The position numbers and the translations under genes were made by a program. Below are positions 1-16,264 of a DNA stretch of 16,264 nt, piece by piece. The notes below the pieces were generated by a model that saw only the letters and a program-made list of their open reading frames with translations, was not told where the DNA came from and made no database searches. The stretch lies in the NCBI GenBank assembly GCA_027491395.1, contig JAOZFI010000012.1, forward strand, positions 1 to 16,264. Reading direction: 5' to 3'. How positions within the stretch are numbered: the first letter of the stretch is position 1; every line of letters begins with the position of its first letter. This stretch comes from Thermoproteota archaeon (GTDB lineage Archaea > Korarchaeota > Korarchaeia > Korarchaeales > Korarchaeaceae).

Positions 1-257
1 CCGGGTATCACCAATCCATCGTACTCCTCCGGGTTCACCTCCTTGAACTCCTTATCCACCCAACCAAACCTGTACCCCGGCTTCTCCGTGTAGGTCTCCC
101 AGCCGGGCTCGAAGTCATGAACCACGGTCATAAGAGTCTTCTTCTTGGGGGCAGCGACTTGTATCTCGAATCCCTCCTCCTTGAGGCGCCAGTACGGGTA
201 AAATAGCTCTTGAGCCTCCACGGCATCCCCGGCCACAATAAGGACCTTCTTGGTCAT
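1..257 (-). CDS. DJ-1/PfpI family protein (type 1 glutamine amidotransferase-like), 3' part outside window
   Basis: Not in ORF track. Manual translation from ATG at 257: MTKKVLIVAGDAVEAQELFYPYWRLKEEGFEIQVAAP...PEEYDGLVIP, matching PfpI N-terminal motifs (E..YP..RL.E.G; YD.LVIPG). SD GGTGA upstream; frame open to the window edge. Confidence 0.9.
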   Translation of the reverse strand, partial: MTKKVLIVAGDAVEAQELFYPYWRLKEEGFEIQVAAPKKKTLMTVVHDFEPGWETYTEKPGYRFGWVDKEFKEVNPEEYDGLVIP

Positions 258-337
258 AAGGGATCACCAAGTATTAGAGGAAGGAAGAGGAGATAACGAT
301 TTCCCTGCGATCATAAAAACCTTTGAATAGTAGATGC

Positions 338-1255: not shown

Positions 1256-1264
1256 CTCAATCCG

Positions 1265-1291
1265 AGAGCCCCGATGAGGCTCTATTAAAAA
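1265..1291 (-). promoter_or_regulatory. Putative terC TATA box (TTTTTAATA, 1291-1283) with adjacent 6-bp inverted repeat AGAGCC-N7-GGCTCT (1265-1283)
   Basis: The AT box lies about 28 nt upstream of the ATG at 1255 with no SD, consistent with a leaderless transcript. The palindrome sits between the box and the start. Confidence 0.45.
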
Positions 1292-1436
1292 GTTAATTGG
1301 GGAGATTAGAGGAGCGAGCCGCGAAGTTTGTTAGCTCGCTGAGAAAGACTGCTCTGATACTTTAGGATTGCTCCCATCTCCTATGAAAATTTACTCATGT
1401 TAATTGATCGAGGAGAGAAAAATAGGGAGGTGGATC

Positions 1437-2930: not shown

Positions 2931-2976
2931 GGGTAGCACCCTGTCTGTTGTCTAACACTCCTTAGGCAATTAATAT

Positions 2977-3049
2977 AAAGATGGCTCTCCGGTCCCCGCT
3001 GAGCCCAGTAGCCCGACTTCAAGACCTGCCGACTAAAAGAGCCATCTTT
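2977..3049. repeat. 12-bp perfect inverted repeat AAAGATGGCTCT / AGAGCCATCTTT with 49-nt spacer, each arm running into a TATA-like box
   Basis: Arms at 2977-2988 and 3038-3049 read directly from the sequence. Confidence 0.8.
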
Positions 3050-3221
3050 TTAACGTTAATTTTCAGCATTAACTTCCCCTAGATCCCAATTAATATATAT
3101 TGTATTATCGCATGTTTCGATGATAATTAAGATGAAAAACAGCTTTTAAGTAACAAATATGTTTCAAAGAGTCCCCGGGCAAAGATTAATATTGTTTCCA
3201 GCCCCTATCCGCGGTGATGGC

Positions 3222-3569
3222 ATGTACAGGATGCTCAGGAGGGTCGAGGCCAAGCCGTATGAGACCTGGCCGGGCGTAACTCGAAGAGCTCTCGCGCTGG
3301 GGGAGAGGTTACTTCTCTTGGAGATCTCATTGAGGAAAGGGGCAATAGCGCCCGCCCACTCTCATCCCAACGAGCAGTCAGGTTACATCGTGACGGGGAG
3401 GCTCAGGATAAGAATAGGGGACAAGACGCACGATCTCAATCCAGGAGATGCTTACATAATACCTCCTGACGTTGAGCACGAGGCGGAGGCTTTAGAAGAC
3501 ACGGTGGTTGTGGAGGTATTCTCTCCTCCTCACGAGCTCCTGAAGAAGGACCTAACGGGGGAGGTGTGA
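3222..3569 (+). CDS. Cupin domain protein, KdgF-like
   Basis: GVTRRALA...GAIAPAHSHPNEQSGYIVTG...GDAYIIPPDVEH...EVFSPP matches the KdgF-type cupin pattern. Start moved to ATG 3222 (SD GGTGA). Confidence 0.75.
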   Translation: MYRMLRRVEAKPYETWPGVTRRALALGERLLLLEISLRKGAIAPAHSHPNEQSGYIVTGRLRIRIGDKTHDLNPGDAYIIPPDVEHEAEALEDTVVVEVFSPPHELLKKDLTGEV

Positions 3570-3574
3570 TCCGT

Positions 3575-3991
3575 ATGCCCAAGTATGTGGTTAGCCCCGA
3601 GGAGGTCACGGGCGGCGCCCCTATGGAGAAAGGAGCCGGTAAGAGGAAGCCAGTGAGGGATCTGAAGATAATATATCCGGAAAACGTAGATCCCGATCCA
3701 AAAACCCTAATTCTGGGGGTTGTGGAGGTAGATCCCGGACACCACACCCCCCTTCACAGACATAAGTGCGAGGAGGTCTACTATATCCTTCAGGGAGAGG
3801 GGGAGGTGGAGATAGAGGGCCAAAGATACCCGGTGAAGGCCGGATATGGAGTCTTCCTGCCTGAAGGTGTGAGGCACAGGATACACAACACCGGGAAGGA
3901 GGTACTAAGGTATGTGGCAGTTGGGGGCATAATGATGGTTCCCTTGGTGCCCAAGTGGCCCACCGAATCCCCCTATGAAATACTGGAGTGA
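3575..3991 (+). CDS. Cupin_2 domain metalloprotein
   Basis: Metal-ligand motifs PGHHTPLHRHKCEEVYYILQGEG and GVFLPEGVRHRIHNTG. ATG 3575 follows SD GGAGGTG. Confidence 0.85.
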   Translation: MPKYVVSPEEVTGGAPMEKGAGKRKPVRDLKIIYPENVDPDPKTLILGVVEVDPGHHTPLHRHKCEEVYYILQGEGEVEIEGQRYPVKAGYGVFLPEGVRHRIHNTGKEVLRYVAVGGIMMVPLVPKWPTESPYEILE

Positions 3992-4037
3992 TGAACCACC
4001 ATCCAACCTTTTTATGTGTGGCGAGGAGGTCCGCCGG

Positions 4038-4511
4038 ATGTATAAGGCTCCTCCGAAGTTCATCTACGTAAGGTGGATAGGTCTGCTCTGCACCCTAGTA
4101 CCGATGATCGCCTTCCTCGTGGTCACGGTACTTTCGAGCGGGTACCACGGGGTTCCCTTCACCTTGGCCAGCTTCCTGCCCCTGCTAGCCCTCTCGTACT
4201 ACCTAGACAGGATAGTAGGAGCTCTTCCCCTGCCGGAGAGATTAAGGCACCCCTACTTATCGGTTGCACTTGCTTGGCTCTTAGCTTATCCCCTAGCTAG
4301 GCTATTGGTCACAGAGCCCATGCTGATAGCCCTCGGATATCCCACCTTGGCCTTCAACGGAGTGGCAGGCGTCCTGCTGATACTGCTAGGATTGGCCTTC
4401 TTGGGGTTCGCGTACGGGACCTTCTTCTACACTGCCTACATAACGATCTTCAGGATCTACCTAAAGAGGAAGCTGAAAAAGGGAGAGGTACCGAAAGAGC
4501 TCACCGGATGA
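4038..4511 (+). CDS. Hypothetical membrane protein (about 4 TM)
   Basis: SD GAGGAGGT before ATG 4038; four hydrophobic segments and a basic C-tail; 3' end overlaps the convergent ilvD by 11 nt. Confidence 0.7.
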   Translation: MYKAPPKFIYVRWIGLLCTLVPMIAFLVVTVLSSGYHGVPFTLASFLPLLALSYYLDRIVGALPLPERLRHPYLSVALAWLLAYPLARLLVTEPMLIALGYPTLAFNGVAGVLLILLGLAFLGFAYGTFFYTAYITIFRIYLKRKLKKGEVPKELTG

Positions 4512-6156
4512 CGTTCAGATCGGGTCTCATCACAGCCCCAACATCAGCTGAGGCTGCCAGCATGGAGTAGATGGCTAGGAATCCGCTCTCCTTTGGAGGA
4601 GGTGGCGTCCACTTCTTTCTCCTCTCCTCCAGCTCGTCCTCATCCACTAGGAGGTCAAGCCTCCTTTTAGGCACATCTATGAGGATCTCGTCCCCCTCCT
4701 CCACCAAGGCTATTGGCCCGCCCTCGGCAGCCTCGGGAGAAACATGCCCTATAGCTGGACCTCTCGTGGCCCCTGAGAACCTCCCATCCGTGATAAGAGC
4801 TACCCTCTTTAGTCCCATGCCCATTATCGTCGCTGTGGCCGTGAGCATCTCCCTCATGCCCGGACCACCCTTAGGCCCCTCGTACCTGATCACCACAACA
4901 TCGCCCTCAGCTATCCTCCCGTCGAATATGGCCTGAACAGCCTCCTCCTCCGAGTCGAAGGGCTTGGCCCTCCCCTTGAAGACCAGCATCTCAGGATCCA
5001 CGGCTGTCTGCTTTATCACCGCGCCTCTGGGGGCAAGAGATCCCCAGAGAATGGCCAACCCACCCTGTTCATGGTAAGGGTTATTCTTTGGTCTTATGAC
5101 CTCCCTGTTCCTCACCTCAGCTTTGTTCACTATATCAGCCCAGGTCTCGCCGGCCACGGTGAGCTGGTCCAGATGCATCATCTTCGCCAGCTCCTTGAAG
5201 ACCGCCGGCACCCCACCAGCGTAATGTAGGTCCCTGACATAGTGCGGGCCCGCGGGGTTGAGGTTGGCTATGTGAGGGGTCTCCTTGCTTATCTCATCGA
5301 AGAGCTCGAGCGGGAGATCGACCCCGGCCTCCTTGGCTATCGCCATGAGGTGAAGCACCGCGTTGGTGGATCCACCCAAAGCTACGTCGACCCTTATAGC
5401 GTTCTCGAAGGCCTCTCTAGTCATCAGATCCCTGGGTTTTATGCCCCTCCTCAGCAGATCCATCACAGCCCTTCCAGCTGCTCTCCCAGCCCTGATCCTC
5501 TCAGCCGAGACAGCTGGTATAGTGGATGTCCACGGGAGGGCCATTCCCAGCGCCTCGGCTGCTATGGCCATGGTGTTAGCAGTGTAGAGACCCGCGCAAG
5601 ATCCCGGACCCGGGACGGCCATGGACTCGATCCTCCTCAGCTCTCCCTCACCTATCTTTCCGGCCTTGTACTGGCCAACAGCCTCGAACACGTGGCTGAC
5701 TGCCATCTCCTTTCCATCCACCACTCCGGGCAGCATGCACCCTCCATTTACTAGGACAGCCGGGATGTTGAGCCTCGCCGCGGCCATGAGCATTCCCGGA
5801 GTTATCTTGTCGCACGAAGTGACCAGTACTAGGGCGTCGAAAGCGTGAGCCTTCGCCATCAGCTCGACACTACCGGCTATCAACTCGCGGCTGGGGAGAG
5901 GAGCCTTCATGCCCTCGTGCCCCATAGCTATGCCGTCGCATATCGCAATGGTGTTGAATTCCAGAGGAGTACCACCCGCTTCCCTCACGCCTTGCTTTAC
6001 GGCCTCAGCCACTTTATCTAAATGGACATGGCCGGGAACTATCTCATTCCACGAGTTAGCTATACCTATGAGGGGCTTACTTAGGTCCCCGTCATCGAGA
6101 CCTGCTGCCTTAAACAAGGATCTCTGGGGGGCTCTCTCCGGCCCCTCCGTTACCAT
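4501..6156 (-). CDS. ilvD: Dihydroxy-acid dehydratase (IlvD/EDD family); true start may be CTG at 6180
   Basis: Motifs NEIVPGHVHL, ICDGIAMGHEGM, SCDKITPG, GSCAGLYTANTM, GGSTNAVLHL, GPKGGPGMREM and TDGRFSGATRG..IGHVSPEA. Confidence 0.95.
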   Translation of the reverse strand: MVTEGPERAPQRSLFKAAGLDDGDLSKPLIGIANSWNEIVPGHVHLDKVAEAVKQGVREAGGTPLEFNTIAICDGIAMGHEGMKAPLPSRELIAGSVELMAKAHAFDALVLVTSCDKITPGMLMAAARLNIPAVLVNGGCMLPGVVDGKEMAVSHVFEAVGQYKAGKIGEGELRRIESMAVPGPGSCAGLYTANTMAIAAEALGMALPWTSTIPAVSAERIRAGRAAGRAVMDLLRRGIKPRDLMTREAFENAIRVDVALGGSTNAVLHLMAIAKEAGVDLPLELFDEISKETPHIANLNPAGPHYVRDLHYAGGVPAVFKELAKMMHLDQLTVAGETWADIVNKAEVRNREVIRPKNNPYHEQGGLAILWGSLAPRGAVIKQTAVDPEMLVFKGRAKPFDSEEEAVQAIFDGRIAEGDVVVIRYEGPKGGPGMREMLTATATIMGMGLKRVALITDGRFSGATRGPAIGHVSPEAAEGGPIALVEEGDEILIDVPKRRLDLLVDEDELEERRKKWTPPPPKESGFLAIYSMLAASADVGAVMRPDLNVIR

Positions 6157-6485
6157 CCGGCTTCTCCACTTGAGATCCAGGGAAACACCCCCGGAGGAGG
6201 ACTGGAGTTAGATATAGCTTTTTTGTACGGATTGGGGGCTACTTTCAGCGGACTGATCTCCCAAGGATCCAGCAAATATATGATTACCTCGCTGACTAAT
6301 TGGCGCAACCCCCTACCTGACTTTTGTTCGACTTGGAACATAATCAAGAACTATAGCATGAATGCTTCACCCTGTATCTATGAAAAGCGCGGGATTTCTA
6401 TGCTATTTTTAAGTTTCAATGCCGTGAACGAGTAAATTATTTATTTAGCTGATTTCGATAAATTTTTCAGGAGGTGGGAAAGAAA

Positions 6486-7490
6486 GTGAAGTTGAGTAGG
6501 TTCGCCGTCTTTCTAATCGCTGCGCTACTAGTTTCGAGCTACGTTTTGGCGTCGGCCTTCCCCATTAAATCACCCACCGCGACCATACTCCCGCCTCCAA
6601 TACAGCTGCCGACCCCCGTACCGATACCAATAATCGCTGTAACCAAGACGGAGCCTACCGTGACCATACCCAAACCTCCAATCACGATAATACCTATACC
6701 AACAGTTACTATTCAGCCGACCACCGCGACCTTCAGGAAGTTGCATGAGGTGATCATCAAAGTGGATCCTCCCTATGCGGGGGAGGTGAAGCCCCTCAGC
6801 CAAGGAAAGCACCCCATGAAGGAGGGTAAGAGGATAGTCTTGAGGGCCGTTCCCAACGCCGGATATAAGTTCGACCACTGGACGTTAGATGGTCATCGCA
6901 AAGTATATAGAAGGGTACTCAGGTTGCAGGTCCAGAAGGATCACGTTATCGTCGCTCACTTCGTCAAGGCCTCAAGTAGTACTAGGAGCCCCCCTAAAAT
7001 ACCCACGGGATCACCATCTCCTGCAACGAAAAGTGCCCCGGCCGGGTGCATCCTACCCAATGGATTCCCCAAGTCTATGTCATACTCCGGGATGTACGCT
7101 GATCTGCTGTACAACGAGGACCTGCTAGCGGGATTAGGAGAGGGGGTTGCGGGCAAGGTCATAATAGGTAGGGAGGCAGTGAGGCCGCAACCTTGGCACA
7201 GTTACGGTGTGGAGATGGGCGACCTGATCCTGCGGATTAATGGGACAAAGTTCAGTGCGAATTTCGGCTCTGAGGACTACGGCATAATATATCTTAAGTG
7301 CGAGGACGGTTATCTAACCATCAGAGTCGCCGGATTGACTAGGTACGGCACTAGGGCAGCGCTTCTTTACCTCCTCAGCTATCCAGATGTTGTGAACGGC
7401 AAGATACTTATCATCCTAGGGTGGAAGGACTCTAATTCCGACAGGAAAGTTGAATTGGAGGAGGTAATCCCGCTGGTATCGATACCCTGA
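6486..7490 (+). CDS. Secreted/surface protein: signal peptide, Pro/Thr/Ile-rich linker, InlB-B/'bacterial repeat'-like beta domain, archaeal S-layer-like C-terminal domain
   Basis: N-terminus KLSRFAVFLIAALLVSSYVLASA; motif LRAVPNAGYKFDHW...HVIVAHF; C-terminal EDYGIIY...VAGLTRYGTRAALLYL...WKDSNSDRKVELEE. GTG 6486 lies 9 nt after SD GGAGGTG. Confidence 0.65.
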   Translation: MKLSRFAVFLIAALLVSSYVLASAFPIKSPTATILPPPIQLPTPVPIPIIAVTKTEPTVTIPKPPITIIPIPTVTIQPTTATFRKLHEVIIKVDPPYAGEVKPLSQGKHPMKEGKRIVLRAVPNAGYKFDHWTLDGHRKVYRRVLRLQVQKDHVIVAHFVKASSSTRSPPKIPTGSPSPATKSAPAGCILPNGFPKSMSYSGMYADLLYNEDLLAGLGEGVAGKVIIGREAVRPQPWHSYGVEMGDLILRINGTKFSANFGSEDYGIIYLKCEDGYLTIRVAGLTRYGTRAALLYLLSYPDVVNGKILIILGWKDSNSDRKVELEEVIPLVSIP

Positions 7491-7494
7491 TCCC

Positions 7495-8313
7495 TCATAC
7501 CTCCTCCATCATCTTCTCTATCCACGATTTTTCCCTTCCGACCTTCAGACCCCTGAACCTAGCGAGAGCATCGAGTATCTTGGTCTGGCCTAAGAGCAAG
7601 AATAAGGAGACAACTATATAGAGCAGGTTCAAGGGCCATCCCCTCATGAGGGAGAGGTAGGTTTCGTAGATATCTAGGGGCTCCTCTATTAAAGCCATTG
7701 GAACCAGCTCCAGTAGGAACTCGCCCCCTAAGTTAATGAATCCTATGATGGATGTCCCTATTATGAAGCTTAGGACCCTCAGGCTCTTCGTCCTCCTGTA
7801 TATCATTGCAAATAGTACCTCTCCAGCTAGGGCTATGACGAAGAGTATGGAGATTCCAAACGTTACAGACACTCTTATGATGTCAATGGACCTTATATAT
7901 CCCAAGAAGACGGCTCTGAAGAGGTAGTAGGTGTAGAAGAGCACGTAGAAGACGAAGAGAAATACCATCGTCGGAACCAAGTAGAAAACCCTGAACTCCA
8001 TTAGGTATACCGCTAGTGTAGCTACCGCTGCGGATGATAGGAGAAGAAAGCTCAGAGCTAGGAACCAGCTGAATATCTTTACTGTGGTCTCGGCGTAAAC
8101 CAGAAAGACGCTCTTGTTCAACCAGTAGTAAAATACTAAGGAGAACTCTGAGAGGGCAAAGACGAGGAATGTACTCAAAGAGAGAAGTAGCCTTCTTTCT
8201 CTAGTCCTAAGTATTTCCGCGAATATGTATAGAGAGATCGCTATCTCGGAGACCAATCCCACCAAGTGGGCTAGGGGATAGGGGTTCATCAGGATCGACA
8301 TCAGGGGAGCCAA
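7495..8313 (-). CDS. Seven-transmembrane protein of unknown function, last gene of the GTPase-locus left arm
   Basis: Seven hydrophobic segments counted by eye; strong SD GGAGGTGA overlapping the upstream stop, before TTG 8313. Confidence 0.75.
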   Translation of the reverse strand: MAPLMSILMNPYPLAHLVGLVSEIAISLYIFAEILRTRERRLLLSLSTFLVFALSEFSLVFYYWLNKSVFLVYAETTVKIFSWFLALSFLLLSSAAVATLAVYLMEFRVFYLVPTMVFLFVFYVLFYTYYLFRAVFLGYIRSIDIIRVSVTFGISILFVIALAGEVLFAMIYRRTKSLRVLSFIIGTSIIGFINLGGEFLLELVPMALIEEPLDIYETYLSLMRGWPLNLLYIVVSLFLLLGQTKILDALARFRGLKVGREKSWIEKMMEEV

Positions 8314-8324
8314 AACATCACCTC

Positions 8325-8783
8325 CTACATGAAGAAGAGGCCCCTAGATCTCTCAAGGGCCTTATCCACTATTCCCCGGTCGTATCTCCTCTCCTCCCCC
8401 GAGGCCTCGTAGCTTTCAAGCGTCCTGAATATGTCCGGGAGTATGCTCTTCAGGAGTTCCTTCGTCAGGGACTTGTTCTCGCTCAACTGCCTGTAGACCT
8501 GAATCAGCCCACCTTCCAGCCTTGCGACATCCCCCTGATTCTTGGAAACTGCTAGGAGGGATGCTATTCCCGCTCTCGGCCTCTCTCCCTCCAGCCTCAG
8601 GGTTACACCAACGAAGTAGAACCCTCCATGGACAAACTTGACGATCTCCCCTCCTTTAGCTGAGAAGGGAAAGGACCTCAGAGGTACCGTTCCCATCTCA
8701 TCTGAGAAACTCTTTGGGTAGCCAGCAATGATCTCTAGACCTCCCGGCTCGAGCGAGGCAAGCAGCAGATACTCAAGCCCCAT
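8325..8783 (-). CDS. uDENN/longin-like domain protein (152 aa)
   Basis: Pattern LLLASLEPGGLEIIAGYP...VPLRSFP...FYFVGV...ERPRAGIASLLAVS + helix resembles the uDENN longin module. ATG 8783 with GGAGG upstream and a TTTTATTA box at 8818-8811. The CDS is secure; the fold call is tentative. Confidence 0.55.
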   Translation of the reverse strand: MGLEYLLLASLEPGGLEIIAGYPKSFSDEMGTVPLRSFPFSAKGGEIVKFVHGGFYFVGVTLRLEGERPRAGIASLLAVSKNQGDVARLEGGLIQVYRQLSENKSLTKELLKSILPDIFRTLESYEASGEERRYDRGIVDKALERSRGLFFM

Positions 8784-8880
8784 AATCCTCCACTCTAAAC
8801 GTCTCTGAAATAATAAAAGGATACCAGCGTGACAGATCACAGATATTTCAGGAGAGCGAAGGCTTAGAAATACCCGTTGG

Positions 8881-9771
8881 TCACTCGGCGTACCTGGCCA
8901 TCATGTCTATGAGGATGTCCTTCACCCTGCTGTAGTCCTTGGTCTTAGATATGCTATTGATCACATCCATTAAAAGAGCCCTGACCTTGCTCTCCGGGGA
9001 CCTCTTTGGTATCAGGGCAGCTGCAAGCAGTCCTTTCTTGTGGGCTATCACTATCTTCCTGTCCTTCATCTCTATGGACTGGGGGATGTCCCTCAAGGCA
9101 TCCTCTGTGTAGTTCTTAGTGAGGGACAGGAACGCGCTCAGGGTGAGGCTCCTCGACGAGGATGTCGATACCAAAGGATTGCCCTGCTCGTCGAGGATCA
9201 CGAGCTCCTCGATCCTCATTGGATGGATGACCTCTCCACCGGTAAGCTGCTCGTAGAGCCAAGCGAACGCCTCGAATAACCCAAAACCGGTCAGAGCGCT
9301 TGTCCATACCACCTGCCAAGGTATCCCCTCCAGCTTGGTCAGATCGAAGTAATCTATCACCTCCATGACAGTAGCAGCGTCTTCCAGATCCGCCTTGTTG
9401 GCCAGCACTAGGAGGGGGATGTTCCTCTTCATCATCGAGATAACATTCCAGAGCTCCGCCTTGGCCTCATCAAATCTCTCCCTATCGGCTGAGTCGATAA
9501 CGAATATGATGGCGTCGGCCTTCTCAGCGTATTCAGCCCAGATCCTGCGGAGGGACCTCTGCCCTCCCAGATCCCATACATTGAATTCTAGGTTCCTGAC
9601 CCTTAGCTTCTCGTAGTTAGCTCCCACCGTCGGTATCGTTGATCCCGGCTCTCCCTTCCTCAGATAGTTGAGAAGCGTAGTCTTACCAGCTCCATCAAGC
9701 CCTAGGATGACTAGAGTGGCCGACCTCCTGAAGAGGCCCAGAAGATTAGAGATGAGCCTTCCGAAGGGCAT
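8881..9771 (-). CDS. Arf-family small GTPase with N-terminal amphipathic helix, fused to a C-terminal longin-like domain
   Basis: G1 GLDGAGKTT, G2 TIPTVG, G3 WDLGGQRSLRRIW (Arf signature), G4 ANKAD, G5 TSALTG. C-domain IEELVILDEQGNPL...LSAFLS...IQSIEM-like pattern (IPQSIEMKDRKIVI). Start at ATG 9771 or 9789. Confidence 0.9.
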   Translation of the reverse strand: MPFGRLISNLLGLFRRSATLVILGLDGAGKTTLLNYLRKGEPGSTIPTVGANYEKLRVRNLEFNVWDLGGQRSLRRIWAEYAEKADAIIFVIDSADRERFDEAKAELWNVISMMKRNIPLLVLANKADLEDAATVMEVIDYFDLTKLEGIPWQVVWTSALTGFGLFEAFAWLYEQLTGGEVIHPMRIEELVILDEQGNPLVSTSSSRSLTLSAFLSLTKNYTEDALRDIPQSIEMKDRKIVIAHKKGLLAAALIPKRSPESKVRALLMDVINSISKTKDYSRVKDILIDMMARYAE

Positions 9772-9793
9772 CGCAATACTGTGACCCATATCC

Positions 9794-9807
9794 TAAAATA
9801 GCTTTTC
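9794..9807 (-). promoter_or_regulatory. Putative BRE/TATA (GAAAAGCTATTTTA) for the Arf-longin gene
   Basis: Ends 23 nt upstream of ATG 9771, consistent with a leaderless start. The same AAAAGCTAT 9-mer occurs upstream of ilvD (6222-6214, minus strand). Confidence 0.4.
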
Positions 9808-9838
9808 TAGGGTAGGCAGCTCCTCTCGTAAAATATTT

Positions 9839-10228
9839 TTAGTTAACCCTCGACCCGCCACCACCAAGGTATGACCTGAGCTCCGATATCAGGGAATCCA
9901 CCCTCTCCTTCATACTATTGTAATCCCTCACCCCAAGTCCAAGGTAGACATCCTCCCCCACTGTGGCCAGCAGCATGCAACCATTCTCAGATCTCATAAG
10001 GCACATATCGAAGCTTCCCAGGCCAGCGTGTTCTGAGAGGGATCGAGATATCTCGACTATGGCGGCGCTGGAGGCGAGGAAGAAATCCCTGACCATCTCC
10101 TCGGAGAGGGAATCGTAGAGAGATATCCCATCGGGAGTGAACAATCCTATGAAGAGCAAATCTTCCCCCGCATCTTCCGCGAACCTCTCAAGTATGGCTC
10201 TGAATTCCTTGGTCAATTCGGGCATCAT
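9839..10228 (-). CDS. Roadblock/LC7 (MglB/LAMTOR-like) domain protein
   Basis: Helix-beta-beta (FIGLFTPDGISL)-helix (FLASSAAIVEISRSL..GLG)-beta-beta-beta (MCLMRSENGCMLLATVGEDVYLGL)-helix. ATGA overlap with the upstream gene. Confidence 0.85.
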   Translation of the reverse strand: MMPELTKEFRAILERFAEDAGEDLLFIGLFTPDGISLYDSLSEEMVRDFFLASSAAIVEISRSLSEHAGLGSFDMCLMRSENGCMLLATVGEDVYLGLGVRDYNSMKERVDSLISELRSYLGGGGSRVN

Positions 10229-10968
10229 TCACCACCACGCGGGAAGATTACAGAACTACTCCTTAGCTCATCTAGGTACTTGACCACTCCGGGAGCCAGC
10301 TGCCTGTACTTCCCCACTAAGAACCTGAGGTACCCAAGGATCTCCATTAGGTCCTTGATCTTGTTAGTGATCTCCTTCTCCTCGAAATCGCTGTAGACCT
10401 CCCTGAGTACCTCACCTATCTCATCTAGCTTATCGGCTACGGGCTCAACATCCCCGTCGTAGGGAGGGAGCATGTCCCTCATCAGTTCCACCAGCATCTC
10501 TAGATAGTTGCTTGGCATGTAACCGAGCTTGGTTGGTGCCTCGTTTACCCTCGCCGCTAGGAACCTTATCTCAGCTCCTGCATCCGGCATCCTCCTGAGC
10601 ACCTCGCCTAAAACAGATGTAGCCAACTCTATTTCTCGCTCTATCCGGGTGAGTAGGTCGCCTATCCTGTTCCTCATCCTCCTGATATCTTCCTTGAGCC
10701 TTCTCATCTCCTCCCTCCTTGGAGGTTCCTCCTCGGCTCTATCGAGAACCTTGCTCATTCCGTTTATCAGGAGGGACACCTCTCTCTCCAGTTCATTGAG
10801 CTCCCTGTCGAAGCTCCTCCTGAGAAGGGGACTCGAGGCCTTGAGGAGGCTATCAACTCTCCTGAGGTCGTTAACCACGTAATAAACGTCCTCATACAGT
10901 GATAGGATGAGTAGCTTCATTTCCAACCTTTTAGCTTCATCTTCCTCCAAGTATCTTTCCAACATCAT
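10225..10968 (-). CDS. Hypothetical alpha-helical/coiled-coil protein
   Basis: 247-aa E/R/L-rich ORF with heptad-like runs; translationally coupled to the Roadblock gene (SD GGTGGTGA, ATGA overlap). Confidence 0.75.
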   Translation of the reverse strand: MMLERYLEEDEAKRLEMKLLILSLYEDVYYVVNDLRRVDSLLKASSPLLRRSFDRELNELEREVSLLINGMSKVLDRAEEEPPRREEMRRLKEDIRRMRNRIGDLLTRIEREIELATSVLGEVLRRMPDAGAEIRFLAARVNEAPTKLGYMPSNYLEMLVELMRDMLPPYDGDVEPVADKLDEIGEVLREVYSDFEEKEITNKIKDLMEILGYLRFLVGKYRQLAPGVVKYLDELRSSSVIFPRGGE

Positions 10969-10989
10969 GCGTAAAGGATACTAGGATGC

Positions 10990-11000
10990 ATTTATATTTT
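10990..11000. promoter_or_regulatory. Putative bidirectional TATA element ATTTATATTTT in a 59-bp divergent intergenic region
   Basis: Reads TTTATATT on + (about 30 nt before ATG 11028) and TATAAAT on - (22-25 nt before ATG 10968/10965). Confidence 0.55.
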
Positions 11001-11027
11001 GGGTGGATCACGATTCTCTGATATTGA

Positions 11028-12713
11028 ATGGAAGCGAAGACCTTGGAGGAGATACTCGATCACCTGAGGAATTCCGGCCTTCCCCCTGAGAGGATAAACA
11101 AGTTCGCTAATTTGTTGAGGAGGGACGGGGTCTTAGATGTTATAGTGAGGGTCCTCAGTAGGTGCCAGTCCTTGGAGGATGCACTAGAGGAGATCTCCAG
11201 CCTCGGGGGAATGGCCGATATCTCCAAAGAGATCTCCCACAAGGTTAACATAGTCAGGAACTTCGTCCTCACTTCTTTAGTGAATCTTTCCGTTGATAAA
11301 TCCTACATGAGGAGCTTCTTCAGGAAGAAGTCAAGGGCAAAGAAGCTGAAGGAGATCCTCTTATCAACTGAGGAGGAGCTTAAGGAGACGGAGGCCCGTC
11401 TCTTAGATGCTGTGAGGAGCGTACTCCTCAAGACCCTAGAATCTCTTGAGATCAGAGACGAGGGACTCAAGGCGGAGGTAGAGGGAATAAAGAGCCTTCG
11501 TGATCTGGTTACAGCCAAGAAGATATGGAATAAGATAAAGCCCGAGTTGGAAAGGGCTGTGGATGGGACTAAGACCCAAGGTCAGGTGAGAAGGGGCGAG
11601 GAGGCGGTGCTGATAACAGACGATCTGCTTAACGAGATACTCGAAGCCCTAGCGAGGATGGAAGATAATAGGAAGGAGCTAGAGCTGAGAGGGTGCACAT
11701 TCCTCCTCCTCTCCGAGGTGTCATCCCTCAAAGATCAGATCCTAAACTGGCTCTCTTCCAACTTCGGGAAGGAGTCTTACGGAGTGGCTAACATCCTTAA
11801 AATGATAAGGAGGTTATCTGATGACTCGGAAACCCTCCTTTCCACTTCCATCAGGCTGCTGAACCTGAGGTCCGAGCTTGAGGCGGTCAAGAGAGAGGTT
11901 TTGGATAAGATCGGCCGGAAGATGCCCCATCTTACGGAGGCCATATCGATGATAGGGCTGAGCTCACCGAGGCTCCCATGCATCATCTCCATGCCCGAGG
12001 AGATAGCCAGCCTGAGGTACGAGGTTTCAAGGCTTGGGGACACTGTGAGCGCCCTGAAAGAGCTAAGTAGCGAGCTGGATCACTTCAATGAGGAGATCAA
12101 GTTCCAGCCGGAGAAGCTGTCTTACAGGACAGAGCCCGATTTCCTCAAGAGCTTAACAGAGACCCTAAGGGCTTTCAGGCTCTCTAGAGGACTCCCAAGC
12201 ACGGCCTACTCCTTACCAGGTCTAATGGAAGAGCTACTCTCCCTGTACCCTAGATGGAGGGAGTACGTGAAGGAACAACTGGAGGAGAAGGGCCACCTTG
12301 AGGTAGAGGAACTCTCATTCATACCTGATATGTGGAGGGATTGGTTCTTGTCTAACTTGGAGGATGAGGGGCTCATCACAATCTCCGATGGTAAGATACT
12401 CCCAAGAGCTCCTAGCCCCGAGTTGAGAAAGCTCAGAATGAAGTTTGAATTCCTGAAGGACACCTACGAGGACATGAAACCCGTATTCCAGAAGGCAGGG
12501 ATTAGCGAGCAGTATCTTGACTCCCTTGAGAGGAAGCTAGCTCTCCTGATGGATCCCAACTACAGGGATGGGGATAAGGAGAGGCTGCAAAAGGAGGTCG
12601 AGGAAGGTATAGACAGGGCCCTGAGCGTTCTCAAGGGTGGGGTGCCCGATGAGAAAGATGAGACTGGTGGTGATGGGCCCGCACCAAGCTGGCAAGTCCA
12701 CCTTGATACATAG
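11028..12713 (+). CDS. Large alpha-helical/coiled-coil protein with a possible winged-helix subdomain near the C-terminus
   Basis: 561-aa soluble E/L/K/S-rich ORF. Segment WREYVKEQLEEKGHLEVEEL...WFLSNLEDEGLITISDGKI is wH-like. Confidence 0.7.
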   Translation: MEAKTLEEILDHLRNSGLPPERINKFANLLRRDGVLDVIVRVLSRCQSLEDALEEISSLGGMADISKEISHKVNIVRNFVLTSLVNLSVDKSYMRSFFRKKSRAKKLKEILLSTEEELKETEARLLDAVRSVLLKTLESLEIRDEGLKAEVEGIKSLRDLVTAKKIWNKIKPELERAVDGTKTQGQVRRGEEAVLITDDLLNEILEALARMEDNRKELELRGCTFLLLSEVSSLKDQILNWLSSNFGKESYGVANILKMIRRLSDDSETLLSTSIRLLNLRSELEAVKREVLDKIGRKMPHLTEAISMIGLSSPRLPCIISMPEEIASLRYEVSRLGDTVSALKELSSELDHFNEEIKFQPEKLSYRTEPDFLKSLTETLRAFRLSRGLPSTAYSLPGLMEELLSLYPRWREYVKEQLEEKGHLEVEELSFIPDMWRDWFLSNLEDEGLITISDGKILPRAPSPELRKLRMKFEFLKDTYEDMKPVFQKAGISEQYLDSLERKLALLMDPNYRDGDKERLQKEVEEGIDRALSVLKGGVPDEKDETGGDGPAPSWQVHLDT

Positions 12714-13293
12714 GCTCGACCCTTGGGCCGTCAGGATGGACTACTCCAAGGGTACCTTCTCAACCACCGTTGGCTTCGACTACGGCATAGTCCTGTGGGA
12801 CGCTACGGAGAACAGGATATACAGGAAGAATCAGCTCGATCTCGTGGACCCCTCAAATGAGATATGGAAGGTGACCATAACTGGAACTCCGGGACAGGTT
12901 GCCTTCACCCCGGTGAGGAAGGTGTTAGCTAAAGGTAAGGATGGGGTGATCCTCGTGATAGACAGCGCTCGTCCCGTGCAGATGGTCTACGCGCTGAGCC
13001 AGTACCAAGAGGCGAGGGAGGCCGCTGGTCCCGTGCCTCTAATGGTACTCGCGAATAAACAAGACCTTCCACAGGCAAAGAGAGCTGAGACTATAGCTTC
13101 ACTATTGGGCATAAGATGCAGGGTTGTCCCGATATCCGCACTGAAAGGGACCAACGTGGAGGAGGGCTTCCTCCAGTTCCTCAAGGAAGTGAGGAGGGGT
13201 ATCCTCGCCAAGTCCATATCGGAGAGATTGGCCGAAAGAAAGGAGTCAGGGTGGATGTCTTGGGTGAAGAGAAAGCTAGCATCATCCGTTTGA
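12649..13293 (+). CDS. MglA/COG2229-type small GTPase
   Basis: G1 GPHQAGKST, G2 TTVGFDYG, G3 GTPGQ, G4 ANKQD, G5 SALKG. ATG 12649 follows SD GGGGTG; overlaps the upstream ORF by 65 nt. Confidence 0.88.
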   Translation: MRKMRLVVMGPHQAGKSTLIHRLDPWAVRMDYSKGTFSTTVGFDYGIVLWDATENRIYRKNQLDLVDPSNEIWKVTITGTPGQVAFTPVRKVLAKGKDGVILVIDSARPVQMVYALSQYQEAREAAGPVPLMVLANKQDLPQAKRAETIASLLGIRCRVVPISALKGTNVEEGFLQFLKEVRRGILAKSISERLAERKESGWMSWVKRKLASSV

Positions 13294-13817
13294 AGGCCGA
13301 TCTTTCCTTTAGACCCAATCCTAAATGCGCTTTCACTTCCTCGGGTTACCGTGTTGAAGTGCTATCCTTGGGATGCTCCTCCATCTGCGCATCCATAGCA
13401 GTGGTTTCCTCCCTGCCGACCCTTCCTCCCGAGGCCGTATTGAATGTCTGCGGAAAGAATACTTCCATTGAATTGAGTGGAGCGCCGATATCTAGGTCAG
13501 ACCCCATTATCATAGTACACGGCAGATGCGACTTGGAGCTTGGTGGGAGGACGCTTGGGCTTCCCTGCGTGAAGAGGACCCTCCCCGCGTACCTAGCGGT
13601 CGATAACGTAAGGGAGGAAGTGCAGGAGATAGGCCTTAATGTCAGGGGAAAAGTGCTCTACAAAGGTGCTCTCTCGATATACCTCCTCCAAATGCCCACT
13701 GGGGGAGAGTTACTAACAGGAGAGGCGATCAGATTCAACCCGGGCAGCTTCCTACTGATCACCGAAGGAAGAAGGCCTAAGCTCAGAGTAGAAGGGGAGG
13801 AACTGGTCCTCCCTTGA
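13251..13817 (+). CDS. Hypothetical beta-rich, Cys-containing protein
   Basis: GTG 13251 preceded by AGGAG; fills the gap to the convergent gene (2-nt gap between stops); no recognised motif. Confidence 0.55.
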   Translation: MDVLGEEKASIIRLKADLSFRPNPKCAFTSSGYRVEVLSLGCSSICASIAVVSSLPTLPPEAVLNVCGKNTSIELSGAPISRSDPIIIVHGRCDLELGGRTLGLPCVKRTLPAYLAVDNVREEVQEIGLNVRGKVLYKGALSIYLLQMPTGGELLTGEAIRFNPGSFLLITEGRRPKLRVEGEELVLP

Positions 13818-13819
13818 AA

Positions 13820-14332
13820 TCAGGGGACTTCGACACTTTTAGAGACGATTTTCCCGTTCCTGAGGGTGCCCTCCACCACCAACACCTTACCACCGGTGAC
13901 ATATTCGGAAGGAACGAAAAGGGAGAGTTCCAAGCTTTCCTTCGGGTTAAGAGGGGTACCTAGGTGATAACCACCCGTTATGTTCTCTCCTGTAATGAGG
14001 TACACTTCTCCATGTCCGAAACCAATGGTCTCGAACCTAAGCTCTACGATGGGGGCTCCTCCGGCGTTACTTATCCTGAGATCTATGGCATATCCGCCTG
14101 TCGGATCTCTCGGGTAGCCGCTTGAGTAGATCGGATAGGAGCTACTATATACTGAGTCATCCGCCAGAAGGAAGGGCGATTCGGGCAGGTACTCGGATCT
14201 CAGTATCCTCACGTAAATGCCCTCTTCCAGCTCCCTAGCGGAGATAGTGGTCTGGTAAGCTATGAAAAGGCCCACAACTATAGCGGTAGCAAGGACTATC
14301 ACTACCCAGCTCACATTTTCTGGGGTCTCCAT
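13820..14332 (-). CDS. Pilin-like membrane-anchored protein with a beta-sandwich domain
   Basis: SD GGGGTGA before ATG 14332; METPE followed by a hydrophobic helix; IDLRISNAGGAPI motif; directly downstream of the TadC-like gene. Confidence 0.55.
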   Translation of the reverse strand: METPENVSWVVIVLATAIVVGLFIAYQTTISARELEEGIYVRILRSEYLPESPFLLADDSVYSSSYPIYSSGYPRDPTGGYAIDLRISNAGGAPIVELRFETIGFGHGEVYLITGENITGGYHLGTPLNPKESLELSLFVPSEYVTGGKVLVVEGTLRNGKIVSKSVEVP

Positions 14333-14358
14333 TAGAATCACCCCTATTCCTTCACCGA

Positions 14359-15954
14359 TCAACGGTAAAGCGCGAAGAGGGCCGGGGATATCAACGAGTG
14401 GATCGCCACAATCATTATCATCGAGACCACCGCGTAAACTATGCTCTGGATGTTCCCGTGCCTAGTACCGTCAGAGACGCTACTGGTGAATATTCCGAAT
14501 ATGAATATGAACATCACCGCGAATAGGAAGTAGACATCGATTATCCAAGCCTTCGCCTTTAGAAAGGAGAGCAGCATCAACATACCCTGCATTCCAGTGG
14601 CTATTTGTGTTCCAGCGTGTTGAACTTGGGCCATGGATTCGGACACCTTCTCACCTAGGAAGGCCATGAGGTCCACGAAGAGCATGCTGAAAGAGAGGCT
14701 AACTGCCATCAGGAAGCTGTTCATGGAGAGGGTCCCCCTGATTTTCTCGTAGACGGTAGACATCAGGGCTATTATCGTCCTGACGTTGAGGAGCGCTTCA
14801 TATCCGTATATCCCCTTCTGGAGATCGGTTATTAGCTTCTTGTAGATCTTGTAAACGTATATCCTCTCGAAGTCCTTCTTCTCGGGGATCTCCCCAACGT
14901 TAACTAGGTTACCGAGGCTGAATTTGAGGACCTTTGAGAACCTCCCGTAAATGTCGAGGGGCATCGAGGTCACTGCCTCGGTGAATGTCTGCCCTATGCT
15001 TATCCTTCCTCCCAAGTCAGCTAGGAAAACCGGGAGAAATGTGTAGGTGTCCTTCCTCAGCCCTATGTACTCCTTTGTAGCCAGATATCCTGCGATGAAG
15101 AAGACTAAAACCCCTAAGAATAGGGAGTACGTGCCGATGATGAAGTAACCAGCTATAGAAACCAGAGAGGCGAGGATCAGCTGGATAAAGAATAGCTTCC
15201 CGTTGAACATTATCTGCTCGGGATAGTACAGGAACTTGTTCTCCGAGAACAGGAGTATGAGCCCCACACCGAGCCCGAGGGCGAGGTTGATGAATAAGTA
15301 CTCGATGAAGGGCATATTAGCCACTCCACCGAGGAGAACCAGCATTAGGGGAGTCATTATGATGAAGGGCATGAGACCGCTCAAGAAGGAGTTTATGAAC
15401 TGTTCGAATGTCTCAATATTTCTCTGACTGTCTATGATCTCCTGCTGTATTACCATGCTGAAAATCCCCTTGGTATCGATACCCGTGGTCATCCCGTTGT
15501 ATATACTCGTCAGGAAGCTCTTGAAGCTCACTCCAAGCCTCTTCTCCTCTTGTAGAACTCTGTTGATAGCCTCCCTAAGGTCCATGCCCATAAAGTAGAA
15601 GTAACCCATGATCTTCCTGAAAACGTAGCTCCCCTCATATTCCCTCATTCGAGCGAACTGATCGAATATGCCCGTGACATCGAAACCAGCGTTTGCTAGT
15701 ATGAAGCCGTGCAACGCGAAGAGTACAGTCTCCCTGTTCACGAGCCCATAGTCTCTCCCTGTAGTGAAGAGACCGTAAAGGAGCATGACGGCGAAGAGAG
15801 GGATCAGAACGAGCACCACGTAATAGCCCGTCACGTAAGCGAGCACTCCGAGTAGTAGCGAGGAGGCGATTACCTTCTTTATGGCCCCCTCAAGCCTCTC
15901 CTTAGCGTTATATACTCCCCTCTTTTCGAGCTCAAGGGCTATAGCATCTAACAA
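14359..15954 (-). CDS. Type II secretion system F (TadC/ArlJ-like) pilus membrane platform protein
   Basis: Two T2SSF-like cytoplasmic domains (ILANAGFD...MGMDLREAI...FKSFLTSIYNGMTTG; LPVFLADLGGRISIGQTFTEAV...YGRFS) separated by TM clusters. TTG start with SD GGTGA. Confidence 0.8.
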   Translation of the reverse strand: MLDAIALELEKRGVYNAKERLEGAIKKVIASSLLLGVLAYVTGYYVVLVLIPLFAVMLLYGLFTTGRDYGLVNRETVLFALHGFILANAGFDVTGIFDQFARMREYEGSYVFRKIMGYFYFMGMDLREAINRVLQEEKRLGVSFKSFLTSIYNGMTTGIDTKGIFSMVIQQEIIDSQRNIETFEQFINSFLSGLMPFIIMTPLMLVLLGGVANMPFIEYLFINLALGLGVGLILLFSENKFLYYPEQIMFNGKLFFIQLILASLVSIAGYFIIGTYSLFLGVLVFFIAGYLATKEYIGLRKDTYTFLPVFLADLGGRISIGQTFTEAVTSMPLDIYGRFSKVLKFSLGNLVNVGEIPEKKDFERIYVYKIYKKLITDLQKGIYGYEALLNVRTIIALMSTVYEKIRGTLSMNSFLMAVSLSFSMLFVDLMAFLGEKVSESMAQVQHAGTQIATGMQGMLMLLSFLKAKAWIIDVYFLFAVMFIFIFGIFTSSVSDGTRHGNIQSIVYAVVSMIMIVAIHSLISPALFALYR

Positions 15955-16264
15955 CTTCTACATCACCAGATTCCAACCACATTATCACGAGGTAGTAATC
16001 CTCAGATGGGTAGGAGGACACGGAGGGTAGATCGGTTAGGTTGACATCTACCTCAACCAGTTCCTTAGCTGGGAACGACATGACAGTCCCATTTGCCTCT
16101 GAGTACTTGGTTCCATTGTAGTAGATTGTGAGGTTCTCACCGGTCTCACTGTAGAACACGGATATCCTGTCAGTGTAAACCCAGTCCCCGTAGTTGTAGA
16201 AGTGTATTGCGGTGTAGTTGTGGTCAGGGATGAGGTTCCCCCCACTCAAGCGATAGGTAGTATT
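15932..16264 (-). CDS. Surface/pilin-like protein, C-terminal part (5' end outside window)
   Basis: Frame open to the edge (NTTYRLSGG...); IHFYNYGD motif; six N-x-T sequons in 110 aa; overlaps the TadC-like start. Confidence 0.6.
   Translation of the reverse strand, partial: NTTYRLSGGNLIPDHNYTAIHFYNYGDWVYTDRISVFYSETGENLTIYYNGTKYSEANGTVMSFPAKELVEVDVNLTDLPSVSSYPSEDYYLVIMWLESGDVEVVRCYSP

Follow-up and report, generated by a model that had tools for sequence, protein, structure and literature searches.

A 16,264-nucleotide stretch of a korarchaeal genome assembled as Thermoproteota archaeon (GenBank assembly GCA_027491395.1, contig JAOZFI010000012.1, positions 1 to 16,264 of the forward strand; called the window here) encodes ArfR-longin, an Arf-related small GTPase (ArfR) of the Arf/SR-beta clade that consists of an amphipathic helix, an Arf-type G domain and a longin domain. 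The GTPase itself is not new and belongs to a published group. Its gene is part of a set, comprising also a small soluble protein of no known family (p152 in the window, p165 in Asgard archaea) and polytopic membrane proteins, that is retained across two archaeal phyla despite reordering and has been duplicated as a unit. We consider it probable that ArfR-longin acts together with p152 and the membrane protein as a membrane-bound GTPase switch, and that the genes for this module were acquired jointly from an Asgard donor.

A gene set shared by Korarchaea and Asgard archaea

On the minus strand of the window, ArfR-longin is the third of five genes that follow one another head to tail, in the order coiled-coil protein, roadblock-like protein, ArfR-longin, p152 and membrane protein (Table 1). 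The membrane gene begins 11 nucleotides (nt) downstream of p152. All five are kept at the main locus of the korarchaeal relatives, where the coiled-coil protein shows 25-94% identity. Some korarchaeal genomes encode a second, diverged ArfR-longin of about 50% identity (loci L017, L018 and L020), followed at these paralogous loci by a copy of p152 (27-36% identity) and a copy of the membrane gene (about 28-31%). Because diverged partner genes follow the diverged GTPase gene, the trio has been duplicated and kept as a unit.

The roadblock-like and coiled-coil genes are absent from the korarchaeal paralogous loci and likewise from the Asgard modules; no roadblock-like gene was found beside the Asgard ArfR-longin genes, bar one distant open reading frame (ORF). 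In the window the roadblock-like gene lies 49 nt upstream of ArfR-longin on the same strand and is possibly in the same transcription unit, its membership of the module being uncertain. The stop of the coiled-coil gene overlaps the start of the roadblock-like gene by 4 nt, and its membership is also uncertain. Both genes may serve either ArfR-longin or the second small GTPase of the window, which is described below.

Table 1. Positions of the ArfR-longin gene, its domains and its minus-strand neighbours in the window.
Feature	Position	Strand	Basis and remarks
ArfR-longin gene	8881..9789	-	302 amino acids plus stop; likely start Met7 at 9771; ORF, Pfam Arf, homologue starts
Amphipathic helix, residues 9-22 (FGRLISNLLGLFRR)	9724..9765	-	Hydrophobic moment; model helix with low predicted local distance difference test score (pLDDT)
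Arf-type G domain, residues 23-184	9238..9723	-	Pfam, PDB sequence, Foldseek; switch I Thr54; G3/interswitch WDLGGQ, Gln77; G4 NKAD
Longin domain, residues 195-300	8890..9207	-	Predicted topology, VIA-align, Foldseek
p152, soluble, no known family	8325..8783	-	ORF extends to GTG at 8840, homologues start at Met 8783; alignment A3
272-amino-acid polytopic membrane protein	7495..8313	-	7-8 hydrophobic segments (crude count); tail ...SWIEKMMEEV
129-amino-acid roadblock-like protein	9839..10228	-	Pfam Robl_LC7 E 0.0021, 18.2 bits, under the cut-off of 23
247-amino-acid coiled-coil protein	10225..10968	-	Weak coiled-coil family matches only

Among Asgard archaea, ArfR-longin is accompanied by p165 and two membrane proteins (memA, memB), or by a variant of this order, in 13 of the 14 regions fetched, the remaining region being a 4.7-kb contig. 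The p165 proteins are soluble and 163-168 amino acids long, memA has about 215 amino acids and 4-7 hydrophobic segments, and memB has 199-231 amino acids. Usually all four genes share a strand, in the order p165, memA, memB and ArfR-longin; p165, memA and memB are divergent from ArfR in one region, and two regions (L117 and L119) each contain the set twice. The Asgard ArfR nearest to the korarchaeal ones (L114, genome G170; 301 bits to the family profile) has a single 274-amino-acid membrane protein, as in Korarchaea, and p165 as an 80-amino-acid fragment. Gene order thus differs between Korarchaea and Asgard archaea whereas the set is kept, which argues for selection on the set.

There is good evidence from profile comparison that p152 and p165 are homologous. 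The p152 profile (A3) matches 12 Asgard ORFs with E values of 3e-8 to 1.5e-3 in a small set, namely 11 of 163-167 amino acids and the 80-amino-acid fragment of L114, and hhalign of A3 against Asgard p165 gives 88.5% (E 2.8e-6). The proteins share a C-terminal end of the form [KR]-G-x-[FM]-F, with RGLFFM (the tail of p152 itself), RGFF and KGYMFF in Korarchaea and KGSFF and RGSFF in Asgard archaea. A joint 18-row alignment has three invariant columns, Pro, Gly and Arg, the last being Arg70 of p152 (8574-8576). A profile search of a large protein collection recovered 119 clusters, of which 118 are nameless or called hypothetical protein and one has an ill-fitting name; none of the 119 carries a Pfam domain, and every source-named lineage is Asgard or Korarchaeum. 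No Pfam or NCBIfam family was found for p152 or for the 272-amino-acid membrane protein.

For the membrane proteins the korarchaeal-Asgard link is weaker and rests on a tail motif and on operon position. In both lineages a predicted cytosolic tail with W-I-[EAS]-[KR] follows the last helix: korarchaeal proteins end in ...SWIEKMMEE, ...WIERMME or ...SWIDK, that of L114 in ...SWIEMQGK, and Asgard memB proteins in ...TWIAK, ...TWISK or ...AWISK. As leads only, the language-model look-alikes of p152 and of the korarchaeal membrane protein are unnamed Asgard clusters (score 0.93-0.94), and 19% of the members of a lower-scoring p152 look-alike cluster (0.87) carry NPR2. Two runs of complex prediction with ArfR (A1) and p152 (A3), made without controls, scored 0.00 and count neither way.

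The Arf G domain and its amphipathic helix

The minus strand of 8881-9789 is one open frame, and a gene on the plus strand of this interval is ruled out by many stops. Met7 is the likely start because homologues begin there: in A1, the 17-row ArfR family alignment that includes one Asgard row, the start column is Met7 in 11 of the 16 homologues, four starting later and one earlier. The translation contains GLDGAGKTT (residues 30-38), TIPTVG (51-56), WDLGGQRSLRRIW (72-84), IIFVIDSADRERFDEAKAEL (94-113), ANKAD (130-134) and GLFEAFAWL (170-178), as well as FGRLISNLLGLFRR near the N-terminus. Residues 72-84 carry WDxGGQxxxRxxW, the hallmark string of the Arf interswitch. Motifs G1-G5 are complete (GLDGAGKTT, Thr54, WDLGGQ with the catalytic Gln77, NKAD and SAL), and their residues are invariant in the 17-row alignment, from korarchaeal orthologues down to 50% identity to the Asgard row at 34%, and in the eukaryotic rows.

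Among the 15 GTPase or NTPase families listed by Pfam, Arf (PF00025) is the best match, with E 2.4e-53 and 180.6 bits (cut-off 22.3) over residues 17-181 and profile positions 8-173 of 174; SRPRB (E 1.4e-11, 44.5 bits) and Gtr1_RagA (E 3.5e-7, 30.3 bits) score far lower. In sequence searches of the PDB, structures of Arf, Arl1 and Arf6 are recovered with E values of 2e-39 or lower, as are two solved GTP-binding proteins from Asgard archaea, 8oun with E 2.5e-36 and 8oum with E 1.8e-34. Foldseek places the G domain of the predicted model nearer to GTP-form than to GDP-form Arfs, with template modelling (TM) scores of 0.90-0.92 (root-mean-square deviation, rmsd, 1.4-1.8 Å) for GTP-form Arf/Arl structures versus 0.75; the Asgard GerdArfR1 structure 8oum gives TM 0.88-0.91.

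Eukaryotic sequences were compared using 11 Arf/Arl proteins from the homologue search, human Arf1 itself not being among them. One protein named Arf1 by its source (P0109) is a divergent copy and was rejected as a stand-in for human Arf1. From G1 to EAxxEL (residues 30-113) the alignment is gapless with 46-50 identities in 84 positions, and over residues 23-184 there are 70-79 in 162 (43-49%). The nearest Asgard proteins have 44-45 of 84 over the shorter range. Residues F51, W66 and Y81 (Arf numbering) form the aromatic triad of the Arf effector surface. Two of the three are kept: the W66 and Y81 equivalents (W72 and Y87) occur in 9/9 korarchaeal rows, and the F51 equivalent is Ala57, with Ala in 8/9 and Val in 1/9 of the other korarchaeal rows and Phe in 10/11 eukaryotic rows. 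The triad bears on effector specificity and is no membership criterion of Pfam or of the ArfR preprint.

The N-terminal helix has a hydrophobic moment of 0.747 and a mean hydrophobicity of 0.61, and one of 2000 shuffles reached the same moment. In the model residues 10-20 are helical with pLDDT 38-45. Moments are 0.60-0.75 in five other family members checked; the helix is shorter and weaker in two members of the paralogue group (0.58 and 0.62) and weak in the Asgard protein P0019 (0.38). An amphipathic helix is the defining feature of ArfRs, HodArfR1 and GerdArfR1 no longer bound membranes in yeast once it was deleted, and the interswitch toggle is visible in crystal structures of Asgard ArfRs (bioRxiv 10.1101/2024.02.28.582541).

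A first-pass annotation, made from the letters of the window without database searches, had described the protein as an Arf-like GTPase with the interswitch signature and an amphipathic N-terminal helix, and each of these assignments holds. All the motif strings that it quoted, with no strand given, were found on the minus strand. Its hand count of 43 identities in 84 against human Arf1, about half, was right in size, and the alignment confirms that the equivalents of W66 and Y81 are kept and that F51 is replaced by Ala. ArfR-longin shares with eukaryotic Arf1, Arl1 and Arf6 an amphipathic helix, every G motif, the WDxGGQ glutamine and the residues equivalent to W66 and Y81. It differs from them in having Ala at F51, an extra 118-amino-acid longin domain and a likely Met-Pro-Phe start that lacks the Gly for myristoylation. 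Domain-family scans of the window found no gene for a Sec7 or ArfGAP domain near ArfR-longin.

The C-terminal longin domain

The full-length protein was modelled with AlphaFold2 from the 17-row alignment (pLDDT 82.3, predicted TM score 0.83). A Foldseek search with the whole model gave GTPase chains only, and the C-domain was therefore modelled separately (residues 185-302, 12 rows, pLDDT 83.5). Both models give the C-domain the topology beta-beta-alpha-beta-beta-beta-alpha-alpha, with elements at E11-15, E21-24, H28-47, E54-56, E60-67, E70-77, H82-99 and H102-117 of the domain model. What sets the longin order apart from that of roadblock proteins is the absence of an N-terminal helix and the presence of two helices at the C-terminus (PMC10933270).

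VIA-align, an all-versus-representatives structure search in which unmatched models typically reach a best Z of 7-8, matched the C-domain to the longin domain of VAMP7 (Z 11.4), Mon1 (11.3), Fuzzy of CPLANE (11.1), AP-3 mu (10.8), TRAPP (Bet5/Trs23; 10.7), Sec22 (10.4), the Lokiarchaeal longin 8yqg (10.0; chain B, rmsd 3.1 Å over 114 residues) and sedlin (9.9), mostly over residues 8-118 of the domain model. Sigma-adaptin is among the longin matches in the Z 10-11.4 range. Roadblock chains scored Z 9-10.3 and covered only residues of about 6-103. The best Foldseek matches were AP sigma subunits and Mon1-Ccz1 (E 4e-5 to 1e-3), with sigma at the top of the list (E 4e-5).

No Pfam longin family matches the window protein at E 0.01 or below, and the nearest Asgard homologue matches Fuz_longin_1 with E 0.0024 and 18.5 bits, under the cut-off of 26.1. 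A phmmer search with the C-domain against 1.84 billion representatives returned only its own family and two spurious partial matches. Since no curated longin family matches the sequence, the longin assignment rests on the predicted fold. It nevertheless bears out the proposal, made in the first pass, of a longin-like domain of about 110 amino acids, with longin topology and Z values of 10-11.4 to solved longins. The narrower part of that proposal, a sigma-adaptin or sedlin subtype, could not be upheld because Z values are tied within 1-1.5 and Mon1, SNARE and TRAPP longins tie with these two or outrank them. As also proposed there, the domain may act as a regulator or adaptor in cis.

The order of a G domain followed by a domain of the longin/roadblock superfamily recalls Rag/Gtr GTPases and raises the main rival explanation, in which the longin domain only pairs two ArfR chains, or ArfR with a roadblock protein, the GTPase is a soluble or peripherally bound signalling switch, and the neighbours are co-inherited non-partners. 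The weak Gtr1_RagA match agrees with this, as do the solution of the archaeal longin 8yqg as a dimer, the roadblock-like gene immediately upstream, and the Asgard Rag/Arf-like GTPases that are fused to longin or roadblock domains (Tran et al., PMC10933270). We nonetheless judge it unlikely: the Arf family outscores Rag by 180.6 to 30.3 bits, the strongly amphipathic N-terminal helix is kept, and it is p152 and the membrane genes, not the roadblock neighbour, that stay beside the paralogues and the Asgard genes. The system also differs from Rag/Gtr with Ragulator, GATOR1 and FLCN-FNIP in its Arf G domain, its longin rather than roadblock topology and its lack of a Ragulator-like set; a small Arg-bearing regulator would be a further possible likeness, at present a lead.

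The pairing of an Arf-family GTPase with a longin at a membrane is also found in SR-beta and the SRX domain of SR-alpha. ArfR-longin might accordingly be a one-chain analogue of this receptor that acts with membrane proteins in protein delivery or insertion. The Arf family includes SR-beta (bioRxiv 10.1101/2024.02.28.582541), SRPRB is matched by Pfam, SRX chains match the C-domain at Z 8.1-9.2 (5ck3_A, 2go5_1 and 6frk_y), and the genomic link to polytopic membrane proteins is obligatory. However, SRX ranks under many other longins, the N-terminus is a 14-residue amphipathic helix and not a transmembrane anchor of the SR-beta type, and the conserved neighbourhood contains no signal recognition particle (SRP), Sec or insertase gene and no sign of an NG-domain partner. 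ArfR-longin also differs from SR-beta/SRX in being one chain in place of two and in its lack of an SRP-pathway context. This explanation seems very improbable.

Distribution and origin

The genome containing the window (1.72 Mb, 98% complete) encodes one Arf-family protein and one divergent small GTPase. Close homologues of ArfR-longin have 50-94% identity and 288-303 amino acids, and their source records assign them to Korarchaeota or Korarchaeum. Of 20 other genomes of this genus, 14 have a full-length match, and none of the 20 genomes outside the genus has any match better than E 5.6e-9, so that among the korarchaeal relatives searched ArfR-longin is confined to the window's own genus. One orthologue of this genus (G010:C35:4364-5257, locus L008) contains a single in-frame TAG, which may be a sequencing error, a pseudogene or a site of read-through.

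The resemblance of the G domain to eukaryotic Arf and Arl1 (46-50/84), as close as that to the nearest Asgard proteins (44-45/84), could raise the suspicion that the contig is Asgard or eukaryotic DNA misplaced in a korarchaeal bin, and mis-assignments have been reported for other archaeal candidates (bioRxiv 10.1101/2024.02.28.582541). The gene occupies the same site, between ilvD and a permease on one side and the second-GTPase cluster on the other, in two near-complete relatives, G013 (a single contig of 1.59 Mb) and G016 (two contigs, the gene being on one of 0.9 Mb), and GC content is even across the window (0.48-0.59). We reject binning error, whose probability is negligible, because ilvD, the permease and two cupin genes keep the same order around ArfR-longin in both relatives.

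The ArfR family was first met in Candidatus Korarchaeum cryptofilum (Kcr_0908; Vargová et al., bioRxiv 10.1101/2024.02.28.582541). The published work finds ArfR outside Asgard archaea only in Korarchaeia, on a terminal korarchaeal branch, and its tree puts korarchaeal ArfRs inside the Arf/SR-beta/ArfR clade, as one clade nested among Asgard homologues, which was read as a recent transfer (same preprint). The window protein is of the same family as Kcr_0908 and the Asgard ArfRs, sharing the Arf G domain, interswitch signature and amphipathic helix, and by the names of its homologues it belongs to the same korarchaeal group. The Asgard ArfRs studied experimentally differ from it in being of a 184-amino-acid class without extra domains, and sequences with flanking domains were sorted out before helix screening in that study (bioRxiv 10.1101/2024.02.28.582541).

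Our G-domain tree of 54 rows unites the korarchaeal sequences in a single clade (ultrafast bootstrap 89, SH-like approximate likelihood ratio test (SH-aLRT) 98), within which the korarchaeal paralogue group is nested (100/99). The backbone among the korarchaeal, eukaryotic and Asgard ArfR-longin groups is not separated, so that the tree leaves the published placement neither strengthened nor contradicted. A quick tree grouped Korarchaea with Asgard ArfR-longin (SH-aLRT 88).

The Asgard protein P0019 (297 amino acids) aligns with the korarchaeal protein over both the G domain and the C-domain. Searching 400 genomes of its phylum with P0019 gave matches at E 1e-20 or below in 122 genomes, and in at least 64 genomes, by a hand count of the 150 matches listed of 392, the match extends at least to query residue 250 and lies in an open frame of about 288-347 amino acids. 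A hidden Markov model (HMM) of the C-domain built from Korarchaea only matches the last 128 amino acids of 16/16 Asgard ArfR-longin proteins (E 5e-17 to 1.6e-5), and hhalign of the korarchaeal C-domain gives 98.3% (E 1.6e-14, 110 columns) against the nearest three Asgard proteins and 93.4% (E 2.4e-7) against a 13-member Asgard clade. Judged by these profiles, the korarchaeal longin domain is homologous to the C-domain of the Asgard ArfR-longin proteins of about 300 amino acids. The fusion is common to Korarchaea and Asgard archaea and therefore predates the transfer, and we infer that the fused gene and its partners entered the korarchaeal genus together from an Asgard donor.

A locus search with patterns from A1 gave mostly distant Asgard and bacterial GTPases and missed the true Asgard ArfR-longin genes. 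No homologues of p152 or of the membrane protein were found near those distant GTPases, and A3 had no match in three Asgard genomes reached through these loci.

Proposed function

Longin and roadblock domains act mainly as dimeric platforms for small GTPases, as in Mon1-Ccz1, TRAPP, Ragulator, GATOR1, FLCN-FNIP and SRX (PMC10933270). In the switch module that we propose, GTP binding would flip the Arf interswitch and free the amphipathic helix into the membrane, by analogy with two Asgard ArfRs. The longin domain would be a dimerisation or docking platform, as its counterparts are for Rag, SR-beta, Rab and Arf GTPases, and may bind p152, the tail of the membrane protein, or both. p152 is a candidate longin-like regulator of the nucleotide cycle, possibly a GTPase-activating protein with the invariant Arg as an arginine finger, and the membrane protein could be a receptor, an anchor or a client. 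A bolder version, which we put forward tentatively as a possibility rather than an expectation, is that these proteins make up an undescribed, self-contained archaeal GTPase system with a W-I-x-K/R-tailed receptor or anchor, an Arf switch carrying its longin, and a longin-like Arg-finger regulator.

Several observations weigh against a jointly inherited module of this kind. Arg70 shares its invariance with two other columns, and the role given to it is conjectural. A longin-like nature of p152 finds no echo in profile searches: hhalign of p152 against the ArfR longin domain gave 0.2%, with no profile similarity, A3 matched nothing in the PDB better than E 0.47, and Pfam at E up to 10 gave no family in more than two of 18 p152/p165 members, one of which had a noise-level uDENN match (E 0.087). 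The AlphaFold2 models were built on shallow alignments of 17 and 12 rows. No Asgard ORF was matched at E below 1 by an HMM of the full-length korarchaeal membrane protein, and hhalign of the membrane proteins produced an alignment limited to 41 columns at the C-terminus (E 0.005, probability 6.9%). With its backbone unresolved, our own tree does not itself show nesting in Asgard archaea. The W and Y of the aromatic triad, kept in Korarchaea, are absent from 16/16 sampled Asgard ArfR-longin proteins, which places the donor outside the lineages sampled. Lastly, a single clade of close relatives supplied most of the sampled Asgard loci. The synteny that these loci have in common is therefore not independent, and its weight rests on three comparisons: the Asgard clade, G170 (L114) and Korarchaea.

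One korarchaeal genome (G003) also speaks against the module, having p140 and ArfR-longin and no membrane partner nearby. It fits the explanation that ArfR-longin is a lone transferred gene, either a self-regulated membrane binder or decaying, whose neighbourhood reflects shared ancestry of the transferred fragment. The in-frame TAG of the G010 relative and the 6 of 20 same-genus genomes lacking a full-length match, some of them incomplete, can be read in the same way. This we hold to be improbable, given that the motif residues are invariant from the korarchaeal orthologues to the Asgard row, that the trio was duplicated as a unit and has been kept at such low identities of p152 and the membrane protein, and that the set was retained while its order was reshuffled between Korarchaea and Asgard archaea.

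In G003 the p152 relative of 140 amino acids (E 2.1e-12) lies directly upstream of ArfR-longin, in Asgard-like order (L019:8785-10218 on G003:C6). The nearest gene for a seven-transmembrane protein resembles, by eye, a transporter of the drug/metabolite type.

Other genes in the window and at the Asgard loci

A second, divergent small GTPase of 218 amino acids is encoded at 12637-13293 (plus strand). Its G3 motif is TGTPGQ, with Thr where Asp is usual, which we take to be an MglA-like trait. Its best solved relatives are the Asgard 'Arf GTPase' structures 8oul and 8ouk (E 1e-10) and MglA (E 1.7e-7). The start of this gene overlaps the end of the preceding one, which encodes a 561-amino-acid protein of no known family (11028-12713, plus strand), and the pair is kept beside the ArfR cluster, divergently oriented, in the main korarchaeal loci. 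At one locus (L023:4702-7076, genome G008) extra, diverged copies of the coiled-coil protein (29% identity) and of the 561-amino-acid protein (26%) lie between ArfR-longin and p152. A 233-amino-acid ORF (13116-13817, plus strand) overlaps the 3' end of the second GTPase gene. Near genomes contain relatives of this ORF at 59-70% identity; in more distant korarchaeal loci, relatives of 25-31% identity lie elsewhere, between the roadblock and coiled-coil genes.

On the other side of the cluster, 6474-7490 (plus strand) encodes a protein of 338 amino acids that combines a hydrophobic segment at the N-terminus with a stretch rich in Pro, Thr and Ile and a domain of the Flg_new_2 family (InlB B-repeat-like). 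Only the nearest relatives have it (45-89% identity), whereas more distant ones lack it at this position, which gives it the look of a gene inserted recently between ilvD and the membrane gene.

Further genes recur at the Asgard loci. Two genes upstream of p165 in L117 (1480-2241) is a protein of 250-254 amino acids with a Fuz_longin_1 match that is under the cut-off (E 0.0011 in the scan of L117). Equivalent ORFs of 250 amino acids occur in L115, L116, L120-L122, L124 and L125, and at these Asgard loci, L117 included, a gene for a 421-448-amino-acid protein resembling FAD/NAD oxidoreductases comes next. Downstream, several loci encode a tetratricopeptide repeat protein of 785-798 amino acids, which has a weak N-terminal MIT match (scan of L117). 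This wider synteny may reflect kinship only, the genomes being closely related.

Relation to known systems and significance

The first-pass annotation presented a eukaryote-like Arf GTPase fused to a longin-like domain as striking. It is not the surprise that this implied, because both the GTPase group and the type of fusion are published: korarchaeal ArfRs had been described and read as an Asgard transfer (bioRxiv 10.1101/2024.02.28.582541), Asgard Arf- and Rag-like GTPases fused to longin, roadblock or both are known (Tran et al. 2024, PMC10933270), and Asgard Arfs with extra N-terminal domains such as longin have been reported (Nature Communications, PMC11914678). ArfR-longin is like the Asgard fusions (PMC10933270) in joining an Arf/Rag-like GTPase to a longin, and its C-domain model matches the longin of the Lokiarchaeota Roadblock-Longin protein 8yqg. 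In MK-D1 the small GTPase genes generally lie outside operons with roadblock, longin and TRAPPC3 genes (PMC10933270), whereas the ArfR-longin subgroup has a conserved neighbourhood with partners of no known family.

The main texts on ArfR and AArf proteins describe neither a korarchaeal C-terminal longin nor a gene neighbourhood, and their supplements may list the domain architecture. In the literature searched we did not find the longin fold of the korarchaeal C-domain, its homology to a widespread Asgard ArfR-longin subgroup, the conserved and duplicated set with p152/p165 and membrane proteins, or its reading as a cassette rather than a single-gene transfer. In the literature searched, no regulator, effector or membrane partner is named for archaeal ArfRs, and the main text of the ArfR preprint has no mention of a guanine-nucleotide exchange factor.

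Arf switches have only recently been discovered in Asgard archaea and, as a second-hand acquisition, in Korarchaea. In eukaryotes, switches of the Arf family start membrane budding and establish organelle identity. The gene set described here offers candidates for joint expression, namely a longin in cis, a protein with an invariant Arg and dedicated membrane proteins, and the korarchaeal version, which has a single membrane protein and to judge by the names of its relatives comes from a thermophile, may be the simplest to reconstitute. If the proposed module is real, it would be a prokaryotic counterpart of the SR-beta/SRX, Rag-GATOR/FLCN and Arf-adaptor (sigma/mu) machines. Portable as a cassette into Korarchaea, it would also supply the first candidates for the cognate regulator and the membrane partner of an Asgard-type Arf. 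The set could show how Arf-type switches worked before eukaryotes, from a source that is a hot-spring archaeon and not an Asgard archaeon but a korarchaeon.

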